Sequence record: OM386654.1
Reading direction: 5' to 3' (one strand)
Length of the DNA stretch: 64,000 nucleotides
From: Escherichia phage vB_EcoM_ESCO9
The notes beneath the pieces are model-generated. The model did not search any database. It was not told where the DNA came from and worked only from the letters and a program-made list of their open reading frames with translations. Each line of letters begins with the position of its first letter. Position 1 is the first letter of the stretch. Positions 2,686 to 25,764 of this stretch are shown one piece after another. Position numbers and translations under genes: made by a program.

Positions 2686-5265
2686 ATGGGAGCTTTTACT
2701 TTCGACATTGAAAGTAACAACTTGCTTAATGACGAAAGTGTAGATTACTTGGCAAGTCCATATCGTTTAAAAGATAGTTTTGCAATGCACTGTATTGTGT
2801 GCGAAAGTCATGATACTGGAGAGATTATTGCTTTCCATGATGGTGATAAATATCTTTTCGATGGTCGTCCGTATATTGAGACTGACGGAAAGTATGAATA
2901 CCGACTGGAGGAATATGAGCATTTAGAATATACCCATTTCCCTCTTAAAGATTTTCCTGATTTTGTAAATGGAACAGGTAAATTTAAAGGTAATTCAAAC
3001 TATAAAATTACCAAAGTAGTTGGACATAACATCATTAACTTTGACTTACTGGCAATTAAATTATTTTTTAAACTCAACTACAGTATTAAGTACAATACTT
3101 GGGGTAATAGTAACATTGAAATTTGTGATACTATGATCTTAAGTAAGACACTAAACCCTGATCGCTTCGGTGGTCATAGTCTGGCAGAGTTATCTAAGAA
3201 AGCTGGAGGGGATGTTAAAATTGATTTTAGAAAAAACATCCCTGAAACTGAAAGATTTAAAACATTTGCAGCAGATATGCTGTATTACTGTATTTACGAT
3301 AACAAAGCTAACACCGCAGTGTTCCGTTATTTGATGGAAGAGTGGGGTGATTATAATAAGTGGTCTGAACCATTTAACTTAGAACAACGTGTAGCTGATA
3401 TTATTACACGTCAAGAGCACCGTGGCTTTGCTTTCAATATGAAGCAAGCAGAAGATAATATTCGTGATCTGGATGCTCGAATGGAAGCATGTCGTTTAGA
3501 GGCAGAACCTGTGCTACCTCCTAAACCTGCTACTAAAGGTTATTTGAAATCATTCATTCCACCTAAACTACAGTTTAAAAAGAATGGTGAACCTTCAAGT
3601 AACATGATAAAGTTTGCAGAGAAACATTCTGGTGAACTTGTACAAAAAGAAGATGGTTGGTGGTTATTTGCATTAGGTAAAGAGTTTAAACTGCCTATTC
3701 CAGCAGAAGAACCTATTTGTGATCCTACAGTACCTGCTACTTTAGACGACACTACACATATTAAAAATTGGTTAGTTGGTTTAGGTTGGAGTCCATCTGA
3801 ATATAAAGATAAAGATATCACTCTTAAATCTGGCACTAAGATTAAGAAAGATGAAGCACAAATGGAGAAAGCTATTCGTGACTATGTTGATCAAACATTA
3901 GCATCTAACTTCTGCCAGGATAGATGTGATCATCTGGAGTGCACACCAGAAACTTTGGAATGGAAACTAAGAGATCGTATTGCTAAAGCTAAAGGTCGTG
4001 GTGTTAAGGTGCTTACTAACCCTTCCTTTACAAAAGGGCAAGAGAAGGATATTTGTCCTAACTTGGAAGCACTAGGTGAAAAGTTTCCTTATGCTACGCA
4101 GATTGTGCAGTATCTTACGTATAAACATCGTAGAAACTCTATTCTAGGCGGTGGTGCTGATTGGGAAGAGGATGAAGAGGATTACGATAAAGGTTATCTG
4201 GCGGCAGTAAGGGCTGATGGTCGTATACCGACTCCTGCTGCAACGTGTGATGCAGCTACGTCTCGTATGAAACATAGGTTAGTAGCAAATATCCCACGTG
4301 TAACATCTCTGTACGGATATGAAATGCGTAACTTATTTGGTGTAGAAGTTCCAAAATACTTCCAAATTGGTTATGACTTTGATTCTCTTGAGGCAAAAAT
4401 AGAATCACACTACTGTTGGCGGTACGAGCAGGAACCACATGAATATTGTAATGCTCTATTATTGGAAAAACCTAATGATGTTCATACAATGATGGCTCGA
4501 CGTATTTCTGACACTATTGGTCGTAAGTTTGAACGAAGCCCTGCTAAATCTGTTAAGTATGGTATTACTTATGGTGCTCAAGCTGCAAAAGTAGCAAAAA
4601 CTATAGGTAGTGATATGTATACAGGACAGCTTGTATACGATGCTTTCTGGGAAGCTGCAAAACCTCTTGCGCTTCTTAAAGAACGTCTGCATGATTTTTG
4701 GGTTAAAACAGGTAAGAAATACATTCTTGGTATTGATGGTAGGAAAGTACCTACACGATCTGCACACGCAATACTTAACTCTCTGTTCCAGAGTGGTGGT
4801 GTTATTTGTGCAAAAAGAGCAATGGTTATCTACGACGATCTTATCGAAGAAGAAGGATTAGCTGTTGACTTTTTTGTTGATGACTGGAAAAATAAGTCAT
4901 TCGTTCAACAAATGATTGCATATCACGATGAAGCACAGCTTGAAGTAACTCGTGATCTGGTGCATTTTAAATGGTTCTCTAAAGAATCTTTAGGTTGGAC
5001 TCAAGTTGATGATCCAGAAGAACAAAAGAAAATTGATAAAGAATGTTTGGATAAGGTTAATGCCTGGAAAGAAGAGGAAGAGAAACGTACTGGCAAGATT
5101 TGGGCTAACGTACATGAATCTCCGAAAGGTGGTTGGTTTACAGCCTACAGTCGTGCTGGAGAATTAGCATCTATCGCTGTTAATAAAGCTGGTGAGTATT
5201 ACAATCTTAATGTACCTCTCACTGCTGGTTACGATGTTGGTAGTTCATGGTCAACTTGTCACTGA
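2686..5265 (+). CDS. DNA polymerase, family A (Pol I-like) with 3'-5' exonuclease domain
   Basis: 859 aa; exo motif VGHNIINFDL; motif B-like KSVKYGITYGAQ; motif C AYHDEAQLEV; RBS AAGGAGGGAG. Confidence 0.9.
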   Translation: MGAFTFDIESNNLLNDESVDYLASPYRLKDSFAMHCIVCESHDTGEIIAFHDGDKYLFDGRPYIETDGKYEYRLEEYEHLEYTHFPLKDFPDFVNGTGKFKGNSNYKITKVVGHNIINFDLLAIKLFFKLNYSIKYNTWGNSNIEICDTMILSKTLNPDRFGGHSLAELSKKAGGDVKIDFRKNIPETERFKTFAADMLYYCIYDNKANTAVFRYLMEEWGDYNKWSEPFNLEQRVADIITRQEHRGFAFNMKQAEDNIRDLDARMEACRLEAEPVLPPKPATKGYLKSFIPPKLQFKKNGEPSSNMIKFAEKHSGELVQKEDGWWLFALGKEFKLPIPAEEPICDPTVPATLDDTTHIKNWLVGLGWSPSEYKDKDITLKSGTKIKKDEAQMEKAIRDYVDQTLASNFCQDRCDHLECTPETLEWKLRDRIAKAKGRGVKVLTNPSFTKGQEKDICPNLEALGEKFPYATQIVQYLTYKHRRNSILGGGADWEEDEEDYDKGYLAAVRADGRIPTPAATCDAATSRMKHRLVANIPRVTSLYGYEMRNLFGVEVPKYFQIGYDFDSLEAKIESHYCWRYEQEPHEYCNALLLEKPNDVHTMMARRISDTIGRKFERSPAKSVKYGITYGAQAAKVAKTIGSDMYTGQLVYDAFWEAAKPLALLKERLHDFWVKTGKKYILGIDGRKVPTRSAHAILNSLFQSGGVICAKRAMVIYDDLIEEEGLAVDFFVDDWKNKSFVQQMIAYHDEAQLEVTRDLVHFKWFSKESLGWTQVDDPEEQKKIDKECLDKVNAWKEEEEKRTGKIWANVHESPKGGWFTAYSRAGELASIAVNKAGEYYNLNVPLTAGYDVGSSWSTCH

Positions 5266-17996: not shown

Positions 17997-19484
17997 TTAG
18001 ACTCCGTACTCGTAGGAAATATTATCAAGGTCAAAGGATGGTACAACATTGTACGCTGGAGTGATATCTCCCTCATTATATTTACTGTCATCCTCAGTAT
18101 TAAGTTTAACATAAACACGGAGAGAAGTCAAGCGTCCGAACGCAAGTGCAGAATAAATTACACCTTTTATCTGATCGTTAGTTACTGTTGACCCTAGCTC
18201 AAAATAAGCCTGTAAGTTTGCAAGAGCAGAAACAATATTTTCCCTTTCTGTTGTACTTAGCACACTACCATTGCCAGTTTGATACACCAGTTTAAGTGAA
18301 TATTCAGCATTGTCACCAGGAGAAAAACGAATTACTTCTTGACCGCCATCTTCTGTTACGATAGTAATTGCTGTTGTACCATAGGTTAAGGTGTTAATAG
18401 GCTTAGTATTATAAATAACCTGTGCAACTTCTTCTGCTGTACCACCATACACAATAGTCTGGAATGTCATAGCTGGAGCATGTTCCTGATCATGTAATGT
18501 AGGGTTATCATAAATCTTAACCTTTGTCACACCATCTGTCAGTAGCAGGGCTTTAACAATAGCAGCACGAGTAGCAGCATTAGCTTCATCCATATTATCA
18601 TTGAAACGAGAACGGAATTCTGCATCTGTTTCAACATCTGTACCTGGAGAGAATGGATAGAAGTTACCTGTATCTAAAAAGCCTGTAAACGTTGAAGAAA
18701 TACCTGTGATACTTTCTGTACCTACTGGATTATAACCAACGTCTGAACACGTAACTGGAATTTCACTCCATTTTGTACCAATTGCAATAGATGCGTAAAA
18801 TTTCACTGGTGTTACTAGACCTATTGGGTTAACATTATCTTCTGGATTATAACCCATATAAACATTACTAGCATCATTCCATACTAAAGCACGATCTGTT
18901 GTTGATACGTTAGCTTTAATGAAATTCGTGAGATCTAAAATAAAGTTTGTATTGCTAGGACTTAATGTTTTACTGTTAAGACCACCATCAATAGCACTTT
19001 GAATGTAGAAAGTAATAGAAGTTTCACCAGAAGCTGTTGCGTTTGCTTTAGAAATGGTGTATGCTCCAATCTTAGCATTCAACATTGTTGGTGCACTGAC
19101 ATAATATGTCAAATCGTTATCGGCATTAAAATAAACATCTGTGCTTAGTTCATAAGTCCAAGCTGCCTTATTGTTAGATTTAACATAAGCATAACCACTA
19201 CCAGCAGAAGCAGCTTTACGATAAAAACCTCTTTTAGAGAAGATTTCATCAAGGTAAATACCTTCTGCACCATCTAAGGTTTGGGTATTGTAAACACCTT
19301 GCATACCTTCCCAAAGGGTGTAATCTGTATATGCAATAATACGAAACAGTTGACCAAAGACAGTATCTTCAGATGTAGCTGTATCTGCACCGAAAGTGTT
19401 TTTCAATGCTGTCATATAATTATTTAAAATATCATCAAACGTTGGAATTACAAAACCAGCATCTGTTAAACCATAATCTGCCAT
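17997..19484 (-). CDS. putative baseplate wedge protein
   Basis: 495 aa; position only. Confidence 0.4.
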   Translation of the reverse strand: MADYGLTDAGFVIPTFDDILNNYMTALKNTFGADTATSEDTVFGQLFRIIAYTDYTLWEGMQGVYNTQTLDGAEGIYLDEIFSKRGFYRKAASAGSGYAYVKSNNKAAWTYELSTDVYFNADNDLTYYVSAPTMLNAKIGAYTISKANATASGETSITFYIQSAIDGGLNSKTLSPSNTNFILDLTNFIKANVSTTDRALVWNDASNVYMGYNPEDNVNPIGLVTPVKFYASIAIGTKWSEIPVTCSDVGYNPVGTESITGISSTFTGFLDTGNFYPFSPGTDVETDAEFRSRFNDNMDEANAATRAAIVKALLLTDGVTKVKIYDNPTLHDQEHAPAMTFQTIVYGGTAEEVAQVIYNTKPINTLTYGTTAITIVTEDGGQEVIRFSPGDNAEYSLKLVYQTGNGSVLSTTERENIVSALANLQAYFELGSTVTNDQIKGVIYSALAFGRLTSLRVYVKLNTEDDSKYNEGDITPAYNVVPSFDLDNISYEYGV

Positions 19485-19729
19485 TAGTTATCCTCCTTAT
19501 CAGGGGCAGGTGATCTGCCCCAACGTAAATCTATTAAATTCTTCATTAGTCTGGATGGTGTGATCATAAAAACAAAAGCCCAGCCCATCCATTCAGGAAT
19601 TTCTTTATCAATTCCCAAATAAATAAACATACTGGACATAACAATCATACCAATAGCATTCCAAACTTTAGTAGAACTGACTTTATTATCAGGATATGTA
19701 CAGAACATACCTATTAAAAATTTTCTCAT
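19484..19729 (-). CDS. small membrane protein (81 aa)
   Basis: Two hydrophobic segments; ATG overlaps the stop of the upstream frame (ATGA). Confidence 0.5.
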   Translation of the reverse strand: MRKFLIGMFCTYPDNKVSSTKVWNAIGMIVMSSMFIYLGIDKEIPEWMGWAFVFMITPSRLMKNLIDLRWGRSPAPDKEDN

Positions 19730-19730
19730 G

Positions 19731-20238
19731 GTGCGTTCTCATTACTTTTTAAATCACGATATACAGCTAATTCCCCAAGGTCTACAGAACCCGCTGAATG
19801 CACAAGTACAGCAGCACTAAGACTAATGGCAGTAGTACCTGGGGCAATATCAGCAGGTAGGGAAAGCGGGGTTTCTGTTACCAACTTGCATCTATATAAA
19901 ACGTTGGAGATGTAGTTGTGGACCCTTCAATCGATATTTGTCCTGTTGAAGCATTAATGGTGGCCATTGCCATGCCAAATGAAACGCCATCAGCAGTGAA
20001 CGGTACAGGGACATTTTTGGTTACTTTTGGTCTGCACCACCTTGGCAGCGTTGGAATTATCATAACTTGGTATTTTTGTAATCGACTGTAGAGTAAGGTC
20101 AGTGGCTAAAACCACTCCAGTGTCAGTAAGAAAGTTGGAAACTGTGCTTTTAACAGTCTTATCAGGTTGGTCTAAAACCAGGTAATCTGAACCATTAACT
20201 TTTGATGTTTCGGGTAAATTAGTAATTGTAGTTGACAT
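19731..20238 (-). pseudogene. tail-fibre-N-terminus-like gene split across two reading frames (two compensating frameshifts)
   Basis: N-terminal 82-aa frame (20238-19990) resembles the N-terminus of 25291..25764; continues in a second frame (20063-19878, NVPV motif shared with the paralog); returns to the first frame for the last ~50 codons, ending in TGA overlapping the next ATG. Shift points lie at A5 and T4 runs. Confidence 0.4.
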
Positions 20239-20246
20239 TTTTACTC

Positions 20247-22406
20247 CTATATATAAAATTTTTGTGTTGTTACTAAATCTTCTCCAGATTTAGTGGCTAA
20301 TGTAATTCCACTTATGGTGGCAATCGTAACATTTACCTGTTTAAGAGTGATATCTTGCAAATAGCAATTCAAAGGCACATTACCCATATAAAAAACTTGG
20401 GATTTTGAATTAAGAACAGTTATTGAATCATGCATTATTTGTGGATAAGCCCATATGTATTGATATAAACCAACAAACTTCTGGTCATTCAATACAATAT
20501 TACCTATAATCATTTTCCACAAATATGTCCTATAGTTTGATTCAGGATCAAAGCCATATAATGGTGCTAGAGTTGCATCTGGAACAAACCCTGCAAGATA
20601 ATGTATCTTATCATAACTAAAACCTAGTTGCTCATTAGGTATTGTGATAGCGTCAAAAGATCTTTCCATCTTACCTTCCAACAACCAATCATAACATTCT
20701 GAACAATAAAAATCAAAGTTTTCTGGGATATAATAATCTTTAGGGAAGTTAACAAATTCCATCATACCGTTACCTAAGATGGATGGTACAAATGGTAACA
20801 ATGTAACTTTTGCCCCAGGATATGCTAATCTAGTATCTGTTGCAAATTTAGCAACACGCAGTCCTAATGTTTTAGATAGGAATGCATAATATTCATCATA
20901 TGGTGTACCAGTTTTATAATTCTTAACTGTACCAACATCTTGTGCATATAATCCAGTTTCATTATTAAATGCAACTTTGGTTGTATAATCATAAATACAC
21001 GGTAGATTGGTAGCTGTATTATACCACCACCACGGTTCACCAACCTGAATAATAACCGGAAGATCATTAGCAGCGGATATAGAAGCTATCTTATTTATTA
21101 CACCTTGTAAATAATTCATCCCTTCATCAATTGAAGGAGATAAAACATAACTTGGTGGCTCATAACCTGTAGCAGCCAGATCATCATTCCAAGTATGTTG
21201 TACCCATTCTACAGGACACACTGTACTCATAAGTTCAAAACTTAAGGAGTTCATTACTGTGTAGCCCATAGCTTTTGCATTAGCGTGGAAGTTATCAAAC
21301 CAGGCTTCTGTTGCTGGGTTTAAATATTCTGTTCTGTTCAAAGCCCATTTATTAGAGCCAGCGTCCCAACTAAATTGATAATAATGTGACATACCATTAT
21401 AGTGGTTAATCATATCCCTATAACCTAATCTGTAGGTGTTAGAAATAACTCGCTCTGGGGTAAGGTTATACATATCATCATAAGATGTACACATTCTTAT
21501 GGTGTGTGCTGGAACATTTAAATTACCCATATTCATCATACTATAACCCGTATCAGGTTCCAGTATGGTAAACTTAAAGGAAAGATCCTCATTGTCTACA
21601 GGAATAATATCTTCAATTTCTTGATACCTTGTGGAGATCAAGGAGAAGAACATATTATCTATCTGTGTAGTGTCAACAACAATATCATTTTCTGGCCCAG
21701 ATTTTAAATTTGAGAAATCTAATTTTATTGTTGCTGTTTTACCATCCTCTGAAACTTCTTCTGCATAAAAGTTTAGAGATACATAATGAACTGTTTCATC
21801 CTTCAGTGTCACTGTTAAGGATGGCAATAATTTTTCTTCTTTTAATCCAGGAACACCTTGACTAAGTTCCATTTTAAACCAAAGTTTCTCTTTACTTAAG
21901 TCAGAATGTTCTTGGTAGCCTAATCCTTTGTGATCATATTTATCGTAAGTTGACCAAATAATCCCAGCAAGACCAGCCACTGTCCTATTAACCATTCTTG
22001 CTGTGAAAGAATCACCATTAGAGATAATAGAACAACTTTCTGTTGCTTGAGAATCTATTGTCCAAAACTTAGGATCAAACATTCTAGACTTCACAACAGG
22101 CCAAGTTAGCGGGGTTGTATTCGATTGATCAGTCGTAATAACACAACGAATTTCTTCATTGATCATCATGTTATTTTGACTTATGCTAGTAATCTCAAGA
22201 GTAAAATAAAGATCTAAAGAGTTTGCCGGACGTTCATATACATCAACCACTACAGTAGCAGAATCTGCATCAGAAGGGAACGTTACTGTTCCCTGTTTAG
22301 CTACATAATCTCTACCAGCGACCGCCGTTCCATCGACGGTCTTATAGCTGAATGAACTGGCATTTACTCTCGTATTTCGAGTTACAGTAAAAATAGCCTG
22401 TTTCAT
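20247..22406 (-). CDS. structural protein with N-terminal Calx-beta-like domain
   Basis: 719 aa; N-terminus FTVTRNTRVNASSFSYKTVDGTAVAGRDYVAKQGTVTFPSDADSATVVVDV matches the Calx-beta pattern. Confidence 0.45.
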   Translation of the reverse strand: MKQAIFTVTRNTRVNASSFSYKTVDGTAVAGRDYVAKQGTVTFPSDADSATVVVDVYERPANSLDLYFTLEITSISQNNMMINEEIRCVITTDQSNTTPLTWPVVKSRMFDPKFWTIDSQATESCSIISNGDSFTARMVNRTVAGLAGIIWSTYDKYDHKGLGYQEHSDLSKEKLWFKMELSQGVPGLKEEKLLPSLTVTLKDETVHYVSLNFYAEEVSEDGKTATIKLDFSNLKSGPENDIVVDTTQIDNMFFSLISTRYQEIEDIIPVDNEDLSFKFTILEPDTGYSMMNMGNLNVPAHTIRMCTSYDDMYNLTPERVISNTYRLGYRDMINHYNGMSHYYQFSWDAGSNKWALNRTEYLNPATEAWFDNFHANAKAMGYTVMNSLSFELMSTVCPVEWVQHTWNDDLAATGYEPPSYVLSPSIDEGMNYLQGVINKIASISAANDLPVIIQVGEPWWWYNTATNLPCIYDYTTKVAFNNETGLYAQDVGTVKNYKTGTPYDEYYAFLSKTLGLRVAKFATDTRLAYPGAKVTLLPFVPSILGNGMMEFVNFPKDYYIPENFDFYCSECYDWLLEGKMERSFDAITIPNEQLGFSYDKIHYLAGFVPDATLAPLYGFDPESNYRTYLWKMIIGNIVLNDQKFVGLYQYIWAYPQIMHDSITVLNSKSQVFYMGNVPLNCYLQDITLKQVNVTIATISGITLATKSGEDLVTTQKFYI

Positions 22407-22414
22407 TATTTTCC

Positions 22415-25291
22415 TTATTTGGTTACATCAACACTAATATCATTCATAGTTAGAACAGTTAGTGTTGGTATGTTACTATTATCCAAAATTGGTAAAGCGT
22501 TTTGAGGGTTTAGTTTACGATACAAGGCATATAAACCAAAACCACGTAATAGTTCTCCAGCATGGAAACCAAAGAACATTCCGTTATCTGAATCTGGGCG
22601 TGGTGCAACACTCCAGCAACCATTCATCGGATGGTTAGGGGAAAGCACAATATAGTTTTGCTGAATCAGATCAAAACATCTGTCTGCTACAATACCAATG
22701 TTTGGAATTTGTGAATCATAACCTGCCAAGCCCATGATTGAACAACCAGCCATAAACAGTGCAGACATATGACTAGTAAAGTCATCAATAGGTGCAAGAA
22801 CTGTACCATCTGGGTTAAAGATAGTTGGTGTTCTTCCATCATTATTGTCTTGGAACCATTTAAGGTAGTTGATCCAATTTTTACAAACAGTTACTAGTTT
22901 TTCAGGAGGTGTTTCTCCTCTTTGTACAAGTTCGTATACAGTATGACAAGCACAGTAGAATGCACGAGCTTCATAACCATCCCACGCTTTTTCATTCCAG
23001 TGTTTCATTGTAAACGTATTAGGTTCACCGTATTTTCTTGCATCCCAACGATCCCACACATATGCTTGTGCCATAGGCCCAGGCATCACAGGATCAAACG
23101 TGTTATAAAACCACATTTGAGCATCATACAAGAAATCAATACTGTTGTTTAAACGTGTCCAATCAATATCCCTACCTGCGAAACAGTATAAGGAAGGATA
23201 CTGGTATCCTGGGTATGGAATACCACGCCATCCATCGTATAATGCAGTGTTTGGGTCACTGATATTAGAGAATGGAATTATTCCTGGTGTGTAATTAAGA
23301 CTATTTAACTTATAGTCAATAATAGTACAATCACCTAACTTAGCAGTATGAGGACTTGAAGCCTGTACAGTAATACGGAAGTACATGGTATAATCATCAC
23401 CAGAAGATGACGAATATCTTTCAGGTACATCGTTAATACAATAGAAATCTATTGTTCCTGTTAAACCATTGACAGGAGCCGTATCAAGAACTAAATTTAC
23501 CTGATCTACAGCAGTAAGATTTATTGCTGAAGGTTTAGGATCTGTTTCTGGATGATTAGGCTGGTAAGCACTTAACTTAAAAGCAGAGGCTGATAAAGTC
23601 TTCGTACTCCATGCCCCTTGCGTTTTAGGCAGCATAGCCCACCATCTCCAACCTTGATCATCCGTGATAGTCATGTTAAAGTCATCTTCATATGTTCTAT
23701 ATGTAATAGACTTAACATTAGCTTTTGATGTAGGAGTTAACCAAAAACCAACAGTAACACCACCATCCGTATCCATTGATGCAGTAACAATCTGGTCATT
23801 ATTAGTTCCAGCAATACCTGTTACATACTTATATTGTACCACAGTATTGTCACCCCAGTCAACAATAATTCGCGGATCTGCGATAATATATGTTCCACCA
23901 CTAGGAGGGGTACTTCTCATAAAGCTGGATAGTGGAATATCCATGCTTGTCATATTAGCTGTACCTAGTGGTAAGCCACAGCGGTAAGTTACTGTGTTAT
24001 TTTCATCTTTGGTCTTACTTAATTCCAACTCTGGACGGAAAAGAATACCATGTCCTGCGTCATCTACACCTTGAAACTGGACTCGTAACTTAGAGTTCTG
24101 ATCAACTTTAAACCAAATGGCTTGCTGTTCTAATGTTGTTTGAGCAGCAACATCTTGTCTAATAACAATATAGCCTAAAGTATCTCTTGAATATTTAGGT
24201 ATTGCTGTAGATGGATACGAATAATCGTAAGAGATGCCATCTGTAAACGGGATAGTTGCATATGTAGACTTACGGAAGAATTTATCAAACATATCAATGT
24301 TTGAGTAATCTTGACACACTAACAGTGAAGACTGCCAGCATAGCCAATATTTTCTTTCTCCTGTAATTTGGTACATCAGGTAATTAGCATCACACCACCA
24401 AGTTTCAGCATCTGACGCATTATCCTGAAAGCCCATTTCTACCGGAACGTTAACTGGTCTGTTATGCCACATAGTGTTACGCTCCATTAAATAACCACCG
24501 TGTTCAACAGGGTTACAAGTCGCGTAGTTAAATTTATATGTACCGTTTACAGAAGTATTTTTTAGTTGAACTGTTCCGTATTGAGATGTTGGAAAACCTT
24601 CTTCTAAGATATTCCCATCCCAGTCAACTTTACGTCCTAGACGATCAATGATCCAATCAACATCCCATTGATCTCCCTTCTTAGACCAATCTGTTGTACC
24701 ATCTGCATTAACAGCATACACTGTAGCGTTTACAGAGTTCCATCCTAGATTACCATTAAAAGCAAACCATGCTTTGTCAAGGTATTCTCCCCAATGAGGA
24801 GCACCATGAGGAATAACTGTTCTGCCGTTAGTCCACGTCATTAAGCTACCCTTAAAACCTCCGTGTGTAGGGTAGCCATCATCTGTAAGAGGATAGTGCG
24901 CAAGACGTGGTTCTTTACCGTTAATAATCCAGTTAGGGCGATATTTTGCTGGCGGATCTGGGATAGGTTGACCACCAAAGAAGTAATCTATATAGGCTTG
25001 CCAATATTTTTTAGCAGAGTCTAAATACTTTGTATCGCCGGAAGCCAGGTATGCATAAGCGCAACCAAGAATAAGCACGGATTGACCTTCTGTTGTAGCA
25101 TCCCCGTTTGGTTGCCCTTCTTGAGCAGTCCAGTTTATAAAGTGTCTGTTATTAGCTAGAACGTTTTGTGGGTTTAATACATAGTGTTGCACTGTAGGAT
25201 CTACAGTTAAACCTGTATTACGATCTAAGAACTGAATATGTCCATCGATCAGTTGAAAAACATTGTCAATTCTGTGCTTAATTCTTGACAT
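22415..25291 (-). CDS. large virion structural protein (958 aa)
   Basis: ORF track; Trp/Tyr/Asn-rich; position in the tail cluster. Confidence 0.45.
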   Translation of the reverse strand: MSRIKHRIDNVFQLIDGHIQFLDRNTGLTVDPTVQHYVLNPQNVLANNRHFINWTAQEGQPNGDATTEGQSVLILGCAYAYLASGDTKYLDSAKKYWQAYIDYFFGGQPIPDPPAKYRPNWIINGKEPRLAHYPLTDDGYPTHGGFKGSLMTWTNGRTVIPHGAPHWGEYLDKAWFAFNGNLGWNSVNATVYAVNADGTTDWSKKGDQWDVDWIIDRLGRKVDWDGNILEEGFPTSQYGTVQLKNTSVNGTYKFNYATCNPVEHGGYLMERNTMWHNRPVNVPVEMGFQDNASDAETWWCDANYLMYQITGERKYWLCWQSSLLVCQDYSNIDMFDKFFRKSTYATIPFTDGISYDYSYPSTAIPKYSRDTLGYIVIRQDVAAQTTLEQQAIWFKVDQNSKLRVQFQGVDDAGHGILFRPELELSKTKDENNTVTYRCGLPLGTANMTSMDIPLSSFMRSTPPSGGTYIIADPRIIVDWGDNTVVQYKYVTGIAGTNNDQIVTASMDTDGGVTVGFWLTPTSKANVKSITYRTYEDDFNMTITDDQGWRWWAMLPKTQGAWSTKTLSASAFKLSAYQPNHPETDPKPSAINLTAVDQVNLVLDTAPVNGLTGTIDFYCINDVPERYSSSSGDDYTMYFRITVQASSPHTAKLGDCTIIDYKLNSLNYTPGIIPFSNISDPNTALYDGWRGIPYPGYQYPSLYCFAGRDIDWTRLNNSIDFLYDAQMWFYNTFDPVMPGPMAQAYVWDRWDARKYGEPNTFTMKHWNEKAWDGYEARAFYCACHTVYELVQRGETPPEKLVTVCKNWINYLKWFQDNNDGRTPTIFNPDGTVLAPIDDFTSHMSALFMAGCSIMGLAGYDSQIPNIGIVADRCFDLIQQNYIVLSPNHPMNGCWSVAPRPDSDNGMFFGFHAGELLRGFGLYALYRKLNPQNALPILDNSNIPTLTVLTMNDISVDVTK

Positions 25292-25764
25292 TAAATCACT
25301 CCTGCCATCACTAAACTACCTATCCAGGTAGCTCCATTATCATAACTAACAAATTCAAAAATATCTGTAGCTCCCTGTTTATAACTCAAAACAGGAGCGC
25401 GACCAAAACTCCATTTAACAGATTGAGGCCACGTTACTTTATTTGCTCCACTGCCTTGACGTAGGGATAGAGTAAAGTTTTGAACAATGTTAGTTGTAAC
25501 TGGAACATTACTAAATGAAATACTGCAAGTTGGACTAGATAAAGTGGCAGAGAAATACTCTGCCGTGCTAATATCTAAAGCTAGGGTATTTGTAACAGTA
25601 CCCCTTGCAGAAAGACGATTTCGTGTAACACCAGCACCCGCAAGAAGAACACGTAATGATGTTTTCTTAGTGATGCCTGATTGATCTGTTACAAAATAAT
25701 CTGTGTCTGAAACAGATGTTGTTACAGGTAGATCAGACACCTTGATTGTAGTTAAATCAGCCAT
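25291..25764 (-). CDS. tail-fibre-associated protein (157 aa), paralog of the N-terminus of 19731..20238
   Basis: Shared N-terminal pattern (..DLP.T..V.D.DY.V.DQ....K). Confidence 0.45.
   Translation of the reverse strand: MADLTTIKVSDLPVTTSVSDTDYFVTDQSGITKKTSLRVLLAGAGVTRNRLSARGTVTNTLALDISTAEYFSATLSSPTCSISFSNVPVTTNIVQNFTLSLRQGSGANKVTWPQSVKWSFGRAPVLSYKQGATDIFEFVSYDNGATWIGSLVMAGVI

Follow-up and report, generated by a model that had tools for sequence, protein, structure and literature searches.

Layout of the locus and of the gp143 slot

The window analysed here is a stretch of 64,000 nucleotides from Escherichia phage vB_EcoM_ESCO9 (record OM386654.1), which by its sequence is that of a phi92-like myophage (Stephanstirmvirinae; Justusliebigvirus). 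On its minus strand, from 20238 to 19726, three consecutive open reading frames follow one another, the first in frame A, the second in frame B and the third in frame A again (Table 1). A preliminary description of this DNA had interpreted them as a single tail-fibre-like gene interrupted by two compensating frameshifts at homopolymer runs. The features from which that interpretation started are present in the sequence: the A-B-A pattern itself, an A5 run at 20018..20014 and a T4 run at 19901..19898, and a last stop codon, TGA, that has bases in common with the start codon of the gene behind it (ATGA at 19729..19726). The third ORF opens on a TTG at 19884 without a recognisable ribosome-binding site (RBS) upstream.

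Table 1. Features of the remnant and of its neighbouring genes, in window coordinates
Feature	Position	Strand	Remarks
Shine-Dalgarno AGGAG of remnant gene	20244..20248	minus	read from sequence; overlaps TAG stop of gp142-like gene
ORF, 82 aa	19990..20238	minus	frame A, ATG start
ORF, 61 aa	19878..20063	minus	frame B
ORF, 52 aa	19726..19884	minus	frame A again, TTG start
N-terminal anchor module, codons 1-46, MSTTITNLPETSKVNGSDYLVLDQPDKTVKSTVSNFLTDTGVVLAT	20102..20238	minus	common to tailspikes of the phi92 gp143 slot
Codons 47-63, DLTLQSITKIPSYDNSN, start of receptor-binding body	20049..20101	minus	residues ~135-151 of 745-aa P22-like E. coli prophage tailspike
Deletion joint, single 8-bp repeat copy TTCCAACG	20049..20056	minus	two blastn segments overlap at exactly these 8 bases
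Out-of-frame tail AAKVVQTKSNQKCPCTVHC, stop TGA 19992..19990	19990..20048	minus	nonsense translation of tailspike 3' end
Last 58 codons and native stop TAA (19880..19878) of prophage-type body	19878..20056	minus	frame B
Post-stop spacer CAGAAACCCCGCT(TT)	19865..19877	minus	resembles left arm of terminator hairpin
3' 45 codons and stop of separate small ORF	19726..19864	minus	homologous to CBA120 TSP1/G7C gp63.1 N-terminal domain
gp142-like 719-aa tail protein gene, upstream, intact	20247..22406	minus	Pfam Calx-beta, NCTSP_N, TIM-barrel_NCTSP
gp144-like small membrane protein gene, downstream, intact	19484..19729	minus	phrog_1322 membrane protein, E = 5e-27

The DNA flanking the locus is 96-99.8% identical to that of many Justusliebigvirus and Phapecoctavirus genomes. 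The 3' end of the upstream gene is 98% identical to phi92 gp142, the downstream gp144-like gene is 98-99.8% identical to its relatives, and the remnant between them occupies the position that the endosialidase tailspike gene gp143 has in phi92. The layout is also the same as in phi92, where an AGGAG RBS is annotated at the gp142/gp143 junction. The 719-aa protein encoded upstream combines Calx-beta with the N-terminal and TIM-barrel domains of the 'non-contractile tail sheath protein' (PF23844, PF23845), an unexpected family name for a myophage fibre protein. According to a 2026 cryo-EM study, gp143 sits on an arm-like scaffold at the fibre I tip (PMC13450770).

Examination of the same interval in related phages revealed a slot of variable content. 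In phi92, gp143 is followed directly by gp144, with no extra small ORF. In BME3, alia and UAB_1 the slot holds a tailspike gene of 550-575 codons and then a small additional ORF, and in muut and AMO3598 it is empty, with 11 nt between the flanking genes. The latter two phages also have unrelated sequence in place of the ~100 nt with which the gp142-like gene ends elsewhere (window 20247..20351 compared with nt 1750-1770 of L022/L023), indicating that the empty slot is not merely the product of a clean excision. Since muut and AMO3598 lack any slot gene and such empty-slot relatives are viable phages, the gp143 slot is dispensable. Several GenBank records labelled 'Campylobacter phage' with the host C. 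jejuni (MG065639, MG065645, MG065656, MG065689 and MG065650) are also ~96-98% identical to the E. coli phi92-like phages across the locus; these look like mislabelled hosts or contaminating coliphages.

Origins of the three segments

The first 137 nt of the remnant (20238..20102) are 98-99% identical at the DNA level to the 5' ends of slot tailspike genes in dozens of Stephanstirmvirinae phages, and this identity breaks off abruptly at 20102. The tailspikes of BME3, phi92 (gp143, EndoN92) and alia begin with the same anchor and diverge past residue ~43-46, the 46-residue module thus being carried by proteins with quite different bodies. In its position between the gp142 and gp144 homologues, its RBS layout and its first 46 codons, the remnant is like phi92 gp143 and the slot tailspikes of BME3, alia, UAB_1, PD06 and phAPEC8. 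It differs from them in having no enzymatic or receptor-binding body: the ORF ends after 82 aa, where an intact tailspike would continue into a receptor-binding or depolymerase body of several hundred residues. Neither the catalytic region nor the C-terminal chaperone domain of an endosialidase is present, as the likeness to phi92 gp143 and to other EndoN genes ends at nt 137 (residue 46), and the residues past the anchor match PHROG 17606 and not endosialidase. The 82-aa ORF is identical to the ESCO9 protein named 'endo-N-acetylneuraminidase' in GenBank; because only the 46-residue anchor is common to endosialidases, that name is misleading.

The preliminary description had likened the first 82 codons as a whole to the N-terminus of a paralog, the 157-aa protein encoded at 25291..25764 (minus strand). 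The resemblance holds for anchor residues 5-42 (37% identity, pairwise E = 3e-6) but not for the rest of the 82 codons. A peptide in the second frame had further been linked to this paralog through a shared NVPV motif; we rejected this homology, as the comparison of the frame-B peptide with the 157-aa protein gave E = 28, and the motif is a chance match. The 157-aa tail-fibre-like protein itself corresponds to phrog_9017, and the N-terminal motif of ~38 residues that it has in common with the slot anchor suggests that several fibre proteins of the phage dock by way of one motif.

Past the anchor, the remnant continues with two pieces of a 745-aa tailspike from P22-like E. coli prophages. The piece in frame A gave blastn matches to nt 2342-2381 of L005, a locus holding the intact gene (window 20088..20049), and to nt 2330-2381 of L018/L021; the 745-aa protein reads DLVLQSITKIPSYDNSN at the residues that correspond to window codons 47-63. 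The piece in frame B matches nt 3987-4165 of the intact gene, and the alignment of window 20056..19871 with L005 3987-4172 extends over 186 nt without a gap at 93.5% DNA identity. At the protein level, 17 IMG/VR loci encode a counterpart of the frame-B peptide (for example, NVPVPFTADGVSFGMAMATINASTGQISIEGSTTTSPTFYIDASW) with 83-98% identity over all 54 residues. The matching residues include RWCRPKVTK, which lies upstream of the shift point proposed earlier, and in these loci the peptide forms the C-terminus of the 745-aa tailspike (98% amino acid identity over 54 residues). Comparison with the PHROG 17606 profile gave the same picture, with the 82-aa ORF matching positions 136-163 of its 753 and the 61-aa ORF matching 696-753 (E = 2e-36), so that about 530 profile positions of the body are missing. 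Relative to L005, the frame-B piece has six synonymous and two non-synonymous codon differences, one of the non-synonymous ones at the joint, and it has neither an indel nor an internal stop relative to the closest prophage allele. It is out of reach of translation from the start of the gene.

The intact 745-aa protein begins with a P22-type head-binding domain (PF09008, residues 1-113, E = 6e-66), which in the window is replaced by the phi92-type anchor; what the window keeps of the protein is residues ~135-151, the last 58 residues and the stop. A weak Pfam GDSL match at residues ~450-627 scored 19.5 bits against a gathering threshold of 32.9 bits, and the esterase assignment of the protein is therefore tentative. 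In RefSeq E. coli chromosomes the protein is annotated either as 'phage tailspike protein' or as 'SGNH/GDSL hydrolase family protein'. The putative hydrolase region is absent from the window, as it falls inside the segment of 1,613 bp that separates the two pieces in the parent gene. A body of this type is seen in no other phage of the phi92-like group. In a wider comparison of the prophage body with our phage collection there was no DNA match, and at the protein level only three distant matches were obtained (23-29% identity), to Aeromonas and Enterobacter phages. The same body (query nt 583-2235) is found behind another N-terminal module, annotated as an SGNH/GDSL hydrolase, both in chromosomes and in NZ_CP076267.1, the 38.7-kb record of an E. 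coli plasmid, indicating that mobile elements of E. coli combine one body with anchors of several types.

The two pieces meet at a short repeat. The intact gene in L005 contains the 8-bp sequence TTCTAACG at both 2374-2381 and 3987-3994, and the window has a single copy at the joint, reading TTCCAACG, so that the repeat can be written TTC(T/C)AACG. The distance between the two segments in the parent gene is 1,613 bp in all 11 loci that hold both (L005-L011 and L018-L021). This number leaves a remainder of 2 on division by three, and its removal is out of frame. When we deleted the interval from L005 in silico, the product ended in ...SYDNSNASEVVQTKSNQKCPCTVHC*, essentially the C-terminus of the 82-aa ORF with the same stop codon, and the out-of-frame tail ...VVQTKSNQKCPCTVHC* was reproduced; the stop falls 19 codons past the joint. 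On these alignments the first change of frame marks the joint at which 1,613 bp were lost from inside the gene between 8-bp direct repeats, and this joint precedes the A5 run, which is unchanged in the intact gene, by ~40 nt. Like other microhomology-mediated (short direct repeat) deletions, this one has the repeat at both ends, retains one copy and has lost the middle, and the flanks are collinear with the parent gene while the frame is lost and a premature stop follows. Compared with the short-repeat deletion pseudogenes of phage and bacterial genomes it has nothing unusual, and may be regarded as a textbook instance.

Beyond the native stop of frame B, the window reads CAGAAACCCCGCTTT, which looks like the left arm of the hairpin AACCCCCGCTTTGGCGGGGTTTTTT that terminates the tailspike gene of BME3. 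It is similar also to the hairpins that follow the stop codon in the prophage loci; the right arm is absent in the window. A promoter and terminator scan of 19400..20600 predicted no terminator and yielded nothing informative.

The third segment belongs to a different gene. Its DNA is 97-100% identical to that of many phi92-like phages, the matches beginning at 19864 or 19849. In BME3, to which identity is 99.8% from 19864 onward, the counterpart is a separate ORF of 102 aa with its own start, located 50 nt downstream of the tailspike stop (L001:3831-4139). In alia and UAB_1 it is 49 aa long as the result of an in-frame internal deletion, MNEMFSQGG|IAPGTT... (L003:3475-3624 and L004:3475-3624), which is a different deletion of the same ORF from that in the window. 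The overlap with the start of the gp144-like gene (ATGA) is common to BME3, alia, UAB_1 and the window. The 3' ends of the stand-alone 102-aa ORFs of BME3, PD06 and PD114 are 99-100% identical to the last 45 codons of the window, which retains codons ~58-102 of the BME3-type ORF and is missing the start, the RBS and the first ~57 codons.

The preliminary description had regarded these last ~50 codons as the C-terminus of the same protein, a claim that does not agree with their separate location downstream of a complete tailspike gene with its own stop in the relatives. We likewise rejected the idea that the segment is the C-terminal chaperone end of a slot tailspike, because in relatives it is a separate ORF past the tailspike stop and terminator, and phi92 is without it. 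Since the small ORF is separate from the tailspike gene, the second frame change is not a frameshift, and the shared frame is a one-in-three coincidence. That each segment is a separately conserved small gene, which the same description had named as an outcome speaking against it, is borne out for the third segment.

Two tailspikes of solved structure, CBA120 TSP1 (4oj5, E = 4e-49) and G7C gp63.1 (4qnl, E = 5e-44), have N-terminal domains that are almost the same as the 102-aa form over ~94 residues; this form also matches CBA120 TSP3 and TSP4, and the PDB matches include 5w6f. A tblastn search with the small ORF found the N-termini of tailspikes in ~180 Salmonella phage records, and the 52-aa ORF of the window has PHROG tail-spike N-terminal matches. 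The window has residues ~58-102 only, and with neither start nor RBS it does not encode the complete TSP1/gp63.1-type domain. In many phi92-like phages, a stand-alone 102-aa ORF that is essentially the TSP1/gp63.1-type N-terminal domain alone lies downstream of the slot tailspike. It may be what remains of a second tailspike that was lost, or else an ORF with a function, as a mini-adaptor or in translational coupling.

Alternative accounts of the locus

The account from which the preliminary description set out, that of one gene of ~170 codons, paralogous to the 157-aa protein and shifted by two indels, one of +1 and one of -1, at the A5 and T4 runs (as mutations or as sequencing errors), appears very improbable. 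It agrees with the A-B-A order of frames, with the existence of both runs and with the resemblance of the N-terminal 38 residues to the paralog. However, the 186-nt alignment to intact homologues crosses both runs without a gap, the A5 run is the same in the intact gene, and the T4 run, where an indel had been proposed, is the result of a synonymous TTC>TTT change. Homology in frame B begins at 20056, well before the A5 run, and continues through both runs to a native stop, while the flanks of the supposed first shift are 1,613 bp apart in the parent gene. Nor do the segments form one contiguous coding sequence, as the frame-B peptide has no similarity to the paralog and the third segment is a different gene in relatives. 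Of the options listed earlier, that of a recently inactivated gene was the right one, although the inactivation came about through deletion. We attach practically no probability to the related proposal that the three frames are expressed as one full-length fusion by way of programmed ribosomal frameshifting or transcriptional slippage, in favour of which there are the short homopolymers and the return to the first frame and nothing else. The fusion would join unrelated fragments of two genes and is without a homologue, the A5 and T4 runs are too short and lie away from the frame boundaries, and the boundary at which a slippery site would be expected is a deletion joint. The arrangement, moreover, occurs in no other sequence of the collections that we searched. 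The middle 237 nt (20101..19865) had no match by blastn or tblastn among 50,697 phage records, and the stitched middle peptide matched only the 82-aa ORF itself among 5.8 billion proteins. Exact and degenerate patterns for the 5' chimeric junction GCCACTGACCTTACTCTACAGTCGAT, the 3' junction and the deletion joint likewise gave 0 matches in IMG/VR, JGI metagenomes and GTDB genomes.

Two further accounts accept the deletion and differ over what it means. On permissive laboratory hosts, phages that have lost a dispensable tailspike gene are readily selected, and it could be argued that the natural phage has a full-length tailspike, the deletion being present only in the assembly or in a laboratory-passaged subpopulation. 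In keeping with this, there is no second independent sequence with the deletion joint. We nevertheless consider such an artefact unlikely, since a repeat would have to be far longer than 8 bp for an assembly to collapse at it. The 82-aa ORF stands in the published genome as well, whose authors describe a truncated gene, and a second independent lesion, the truncated small ORF, adjoins the first. A deletion mutant may still have become fixed while the phage was propagated in the laboratory, or may make up part of the phage stock only. Alternatively, the remnant may be functional, either through an 82-aa anchor-only peptide that caps or plugs the tailspike dock on the fibre scaffold, or through the 52-aa TTG ORF, which might couple translation into the gp144-like gene. 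In favour of this, the AGGAG RBS is undamaged and all 46 residues of the anchor are present, the last stop codon still overlaps the start of the gp144-like gene in ATGA, and relatives widely have a stand-alone mini-ORF of the anchor type, of 49-102 aa, at the corresponding place. However, a recent deletion would leave the RBS and the anchor in place just as well, nonsense residues make up 19 of the 82, and the remnant is found in one genome only. In addition, empty-slot relatives are viable, no recognisable RBS precedes the TTG, and a narrow host range has been reported for ESCO9 (PMC10269720). We therefore judge function of the remnant to be improbable. The same low probability applies to the more specific conjecture that the 82-aa peptide is expressed and caps the fibre-I dock as a functional 'blank', which would place it with the 49-102-aa TSP1-type ORFs in a class of stand-alone tailspike-anchor mini-proteins. 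If this were true, an anchor-only 'blank' would alter virion architecture or host range. It is conceivable, if improbable, that the peptide could still dock on the fibre-I scaffold.

Proposed history and significance

The reading that we favour, with a probability of roughly 90%, is that the locus is a decayed receptor-binding-protein gene in the gp143 slot, whose tailspike was gutted by a short-repeat deletion next to a truncated small ORF. The ancestor would have been a chimeric tailspike, in which the 46-residue slot anchor was continued by residues ~135-745 of a P22-like E. coli prophage tailspike, a body of GDSL/SGNH-hydrolase-like type. Downstream of the ancestral tailspike gene there would have been a terminator and then, as many relatives have it, the small ORF for a stand-alone CBA120-TSP1-type N-terminal domain. 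We searched for an intact chimera of this anchor with an esterase-type body and found none in the phage collection, IMG/VR, JGI metagenomes or GTDB genomes, and it is on this account that the full-length, phage-borne precursor has to be inferred. In principle, the fragments may have arrived already deleted.

In the order of events that we propose, a single deletion between the two TTC(T/C)AACG copies would have removed 1,613 bp. Because this is not a multiple of three, translation passes from 63 genuine codons into 19 nonsense codons and terminates at 19990. What survived of the 3' part of the tailspike gene would have been left untranslatable in the other frame, ending at its native TAA. A second loss, probably of ~200 bp and with only TT as microhomology, would have taken away the right arm of the terminator, the RBS and the first ~57 codons of the small ORF, leaving its last 45 codons by chance in the first frame. 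Neither an indel nor an internal stop has appeared in the tailspike remnant, and the third segment still agrees with its relatives at 97-100% identity; this lack of detectable decay after inactivation fits a recent event.

The only plausible product of the locus is a peptide of 82 aa consisting of the anchor, 17 neck residues and 19 nonsense residues, without any receptor-binding or enzymatic part. We infer that the phage has effectively lost its gp143-slot tailspike, and that it now resembles the empty-slot relatives of the muut/ESCO32 type. This agrees with the original ESCO9 paper, which described the 249-bp gene at the gp143 position as truncated and probably non-functional, and whose authors tied the narrow host range of the phage to the absence of a depolymerase (PMC10269720).

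The truncation was thus already known from the literature, and the locus, an ordinary pseudogene, has no bearing on frameshifting or on any open question. What is new is the exact position of the breakpoints, the identity of the 3' segment, and the finding that the lost body came from a prophage and was of the GDSL/SGNH-like type, not an endosialidase. The value of these results lies mainly in correcting the annotation of the 82-aa ORF as an 'endo-N-acetylneuraminidase'. The locus also provides a small and clear example of a known process by which receptor-binding modules pass between the prophages of temperate P22-like podophages and virulent phi92-like myophages, with the swap falling exactly at the boundary between anchor and body. 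It is equally an example of a second known process, in which a dispensable tailspike slot erodes by short-repeat deletion towards the empty state seen in muut and ESCO32, an erosion that fits the narrow host range reported for ESCO9.
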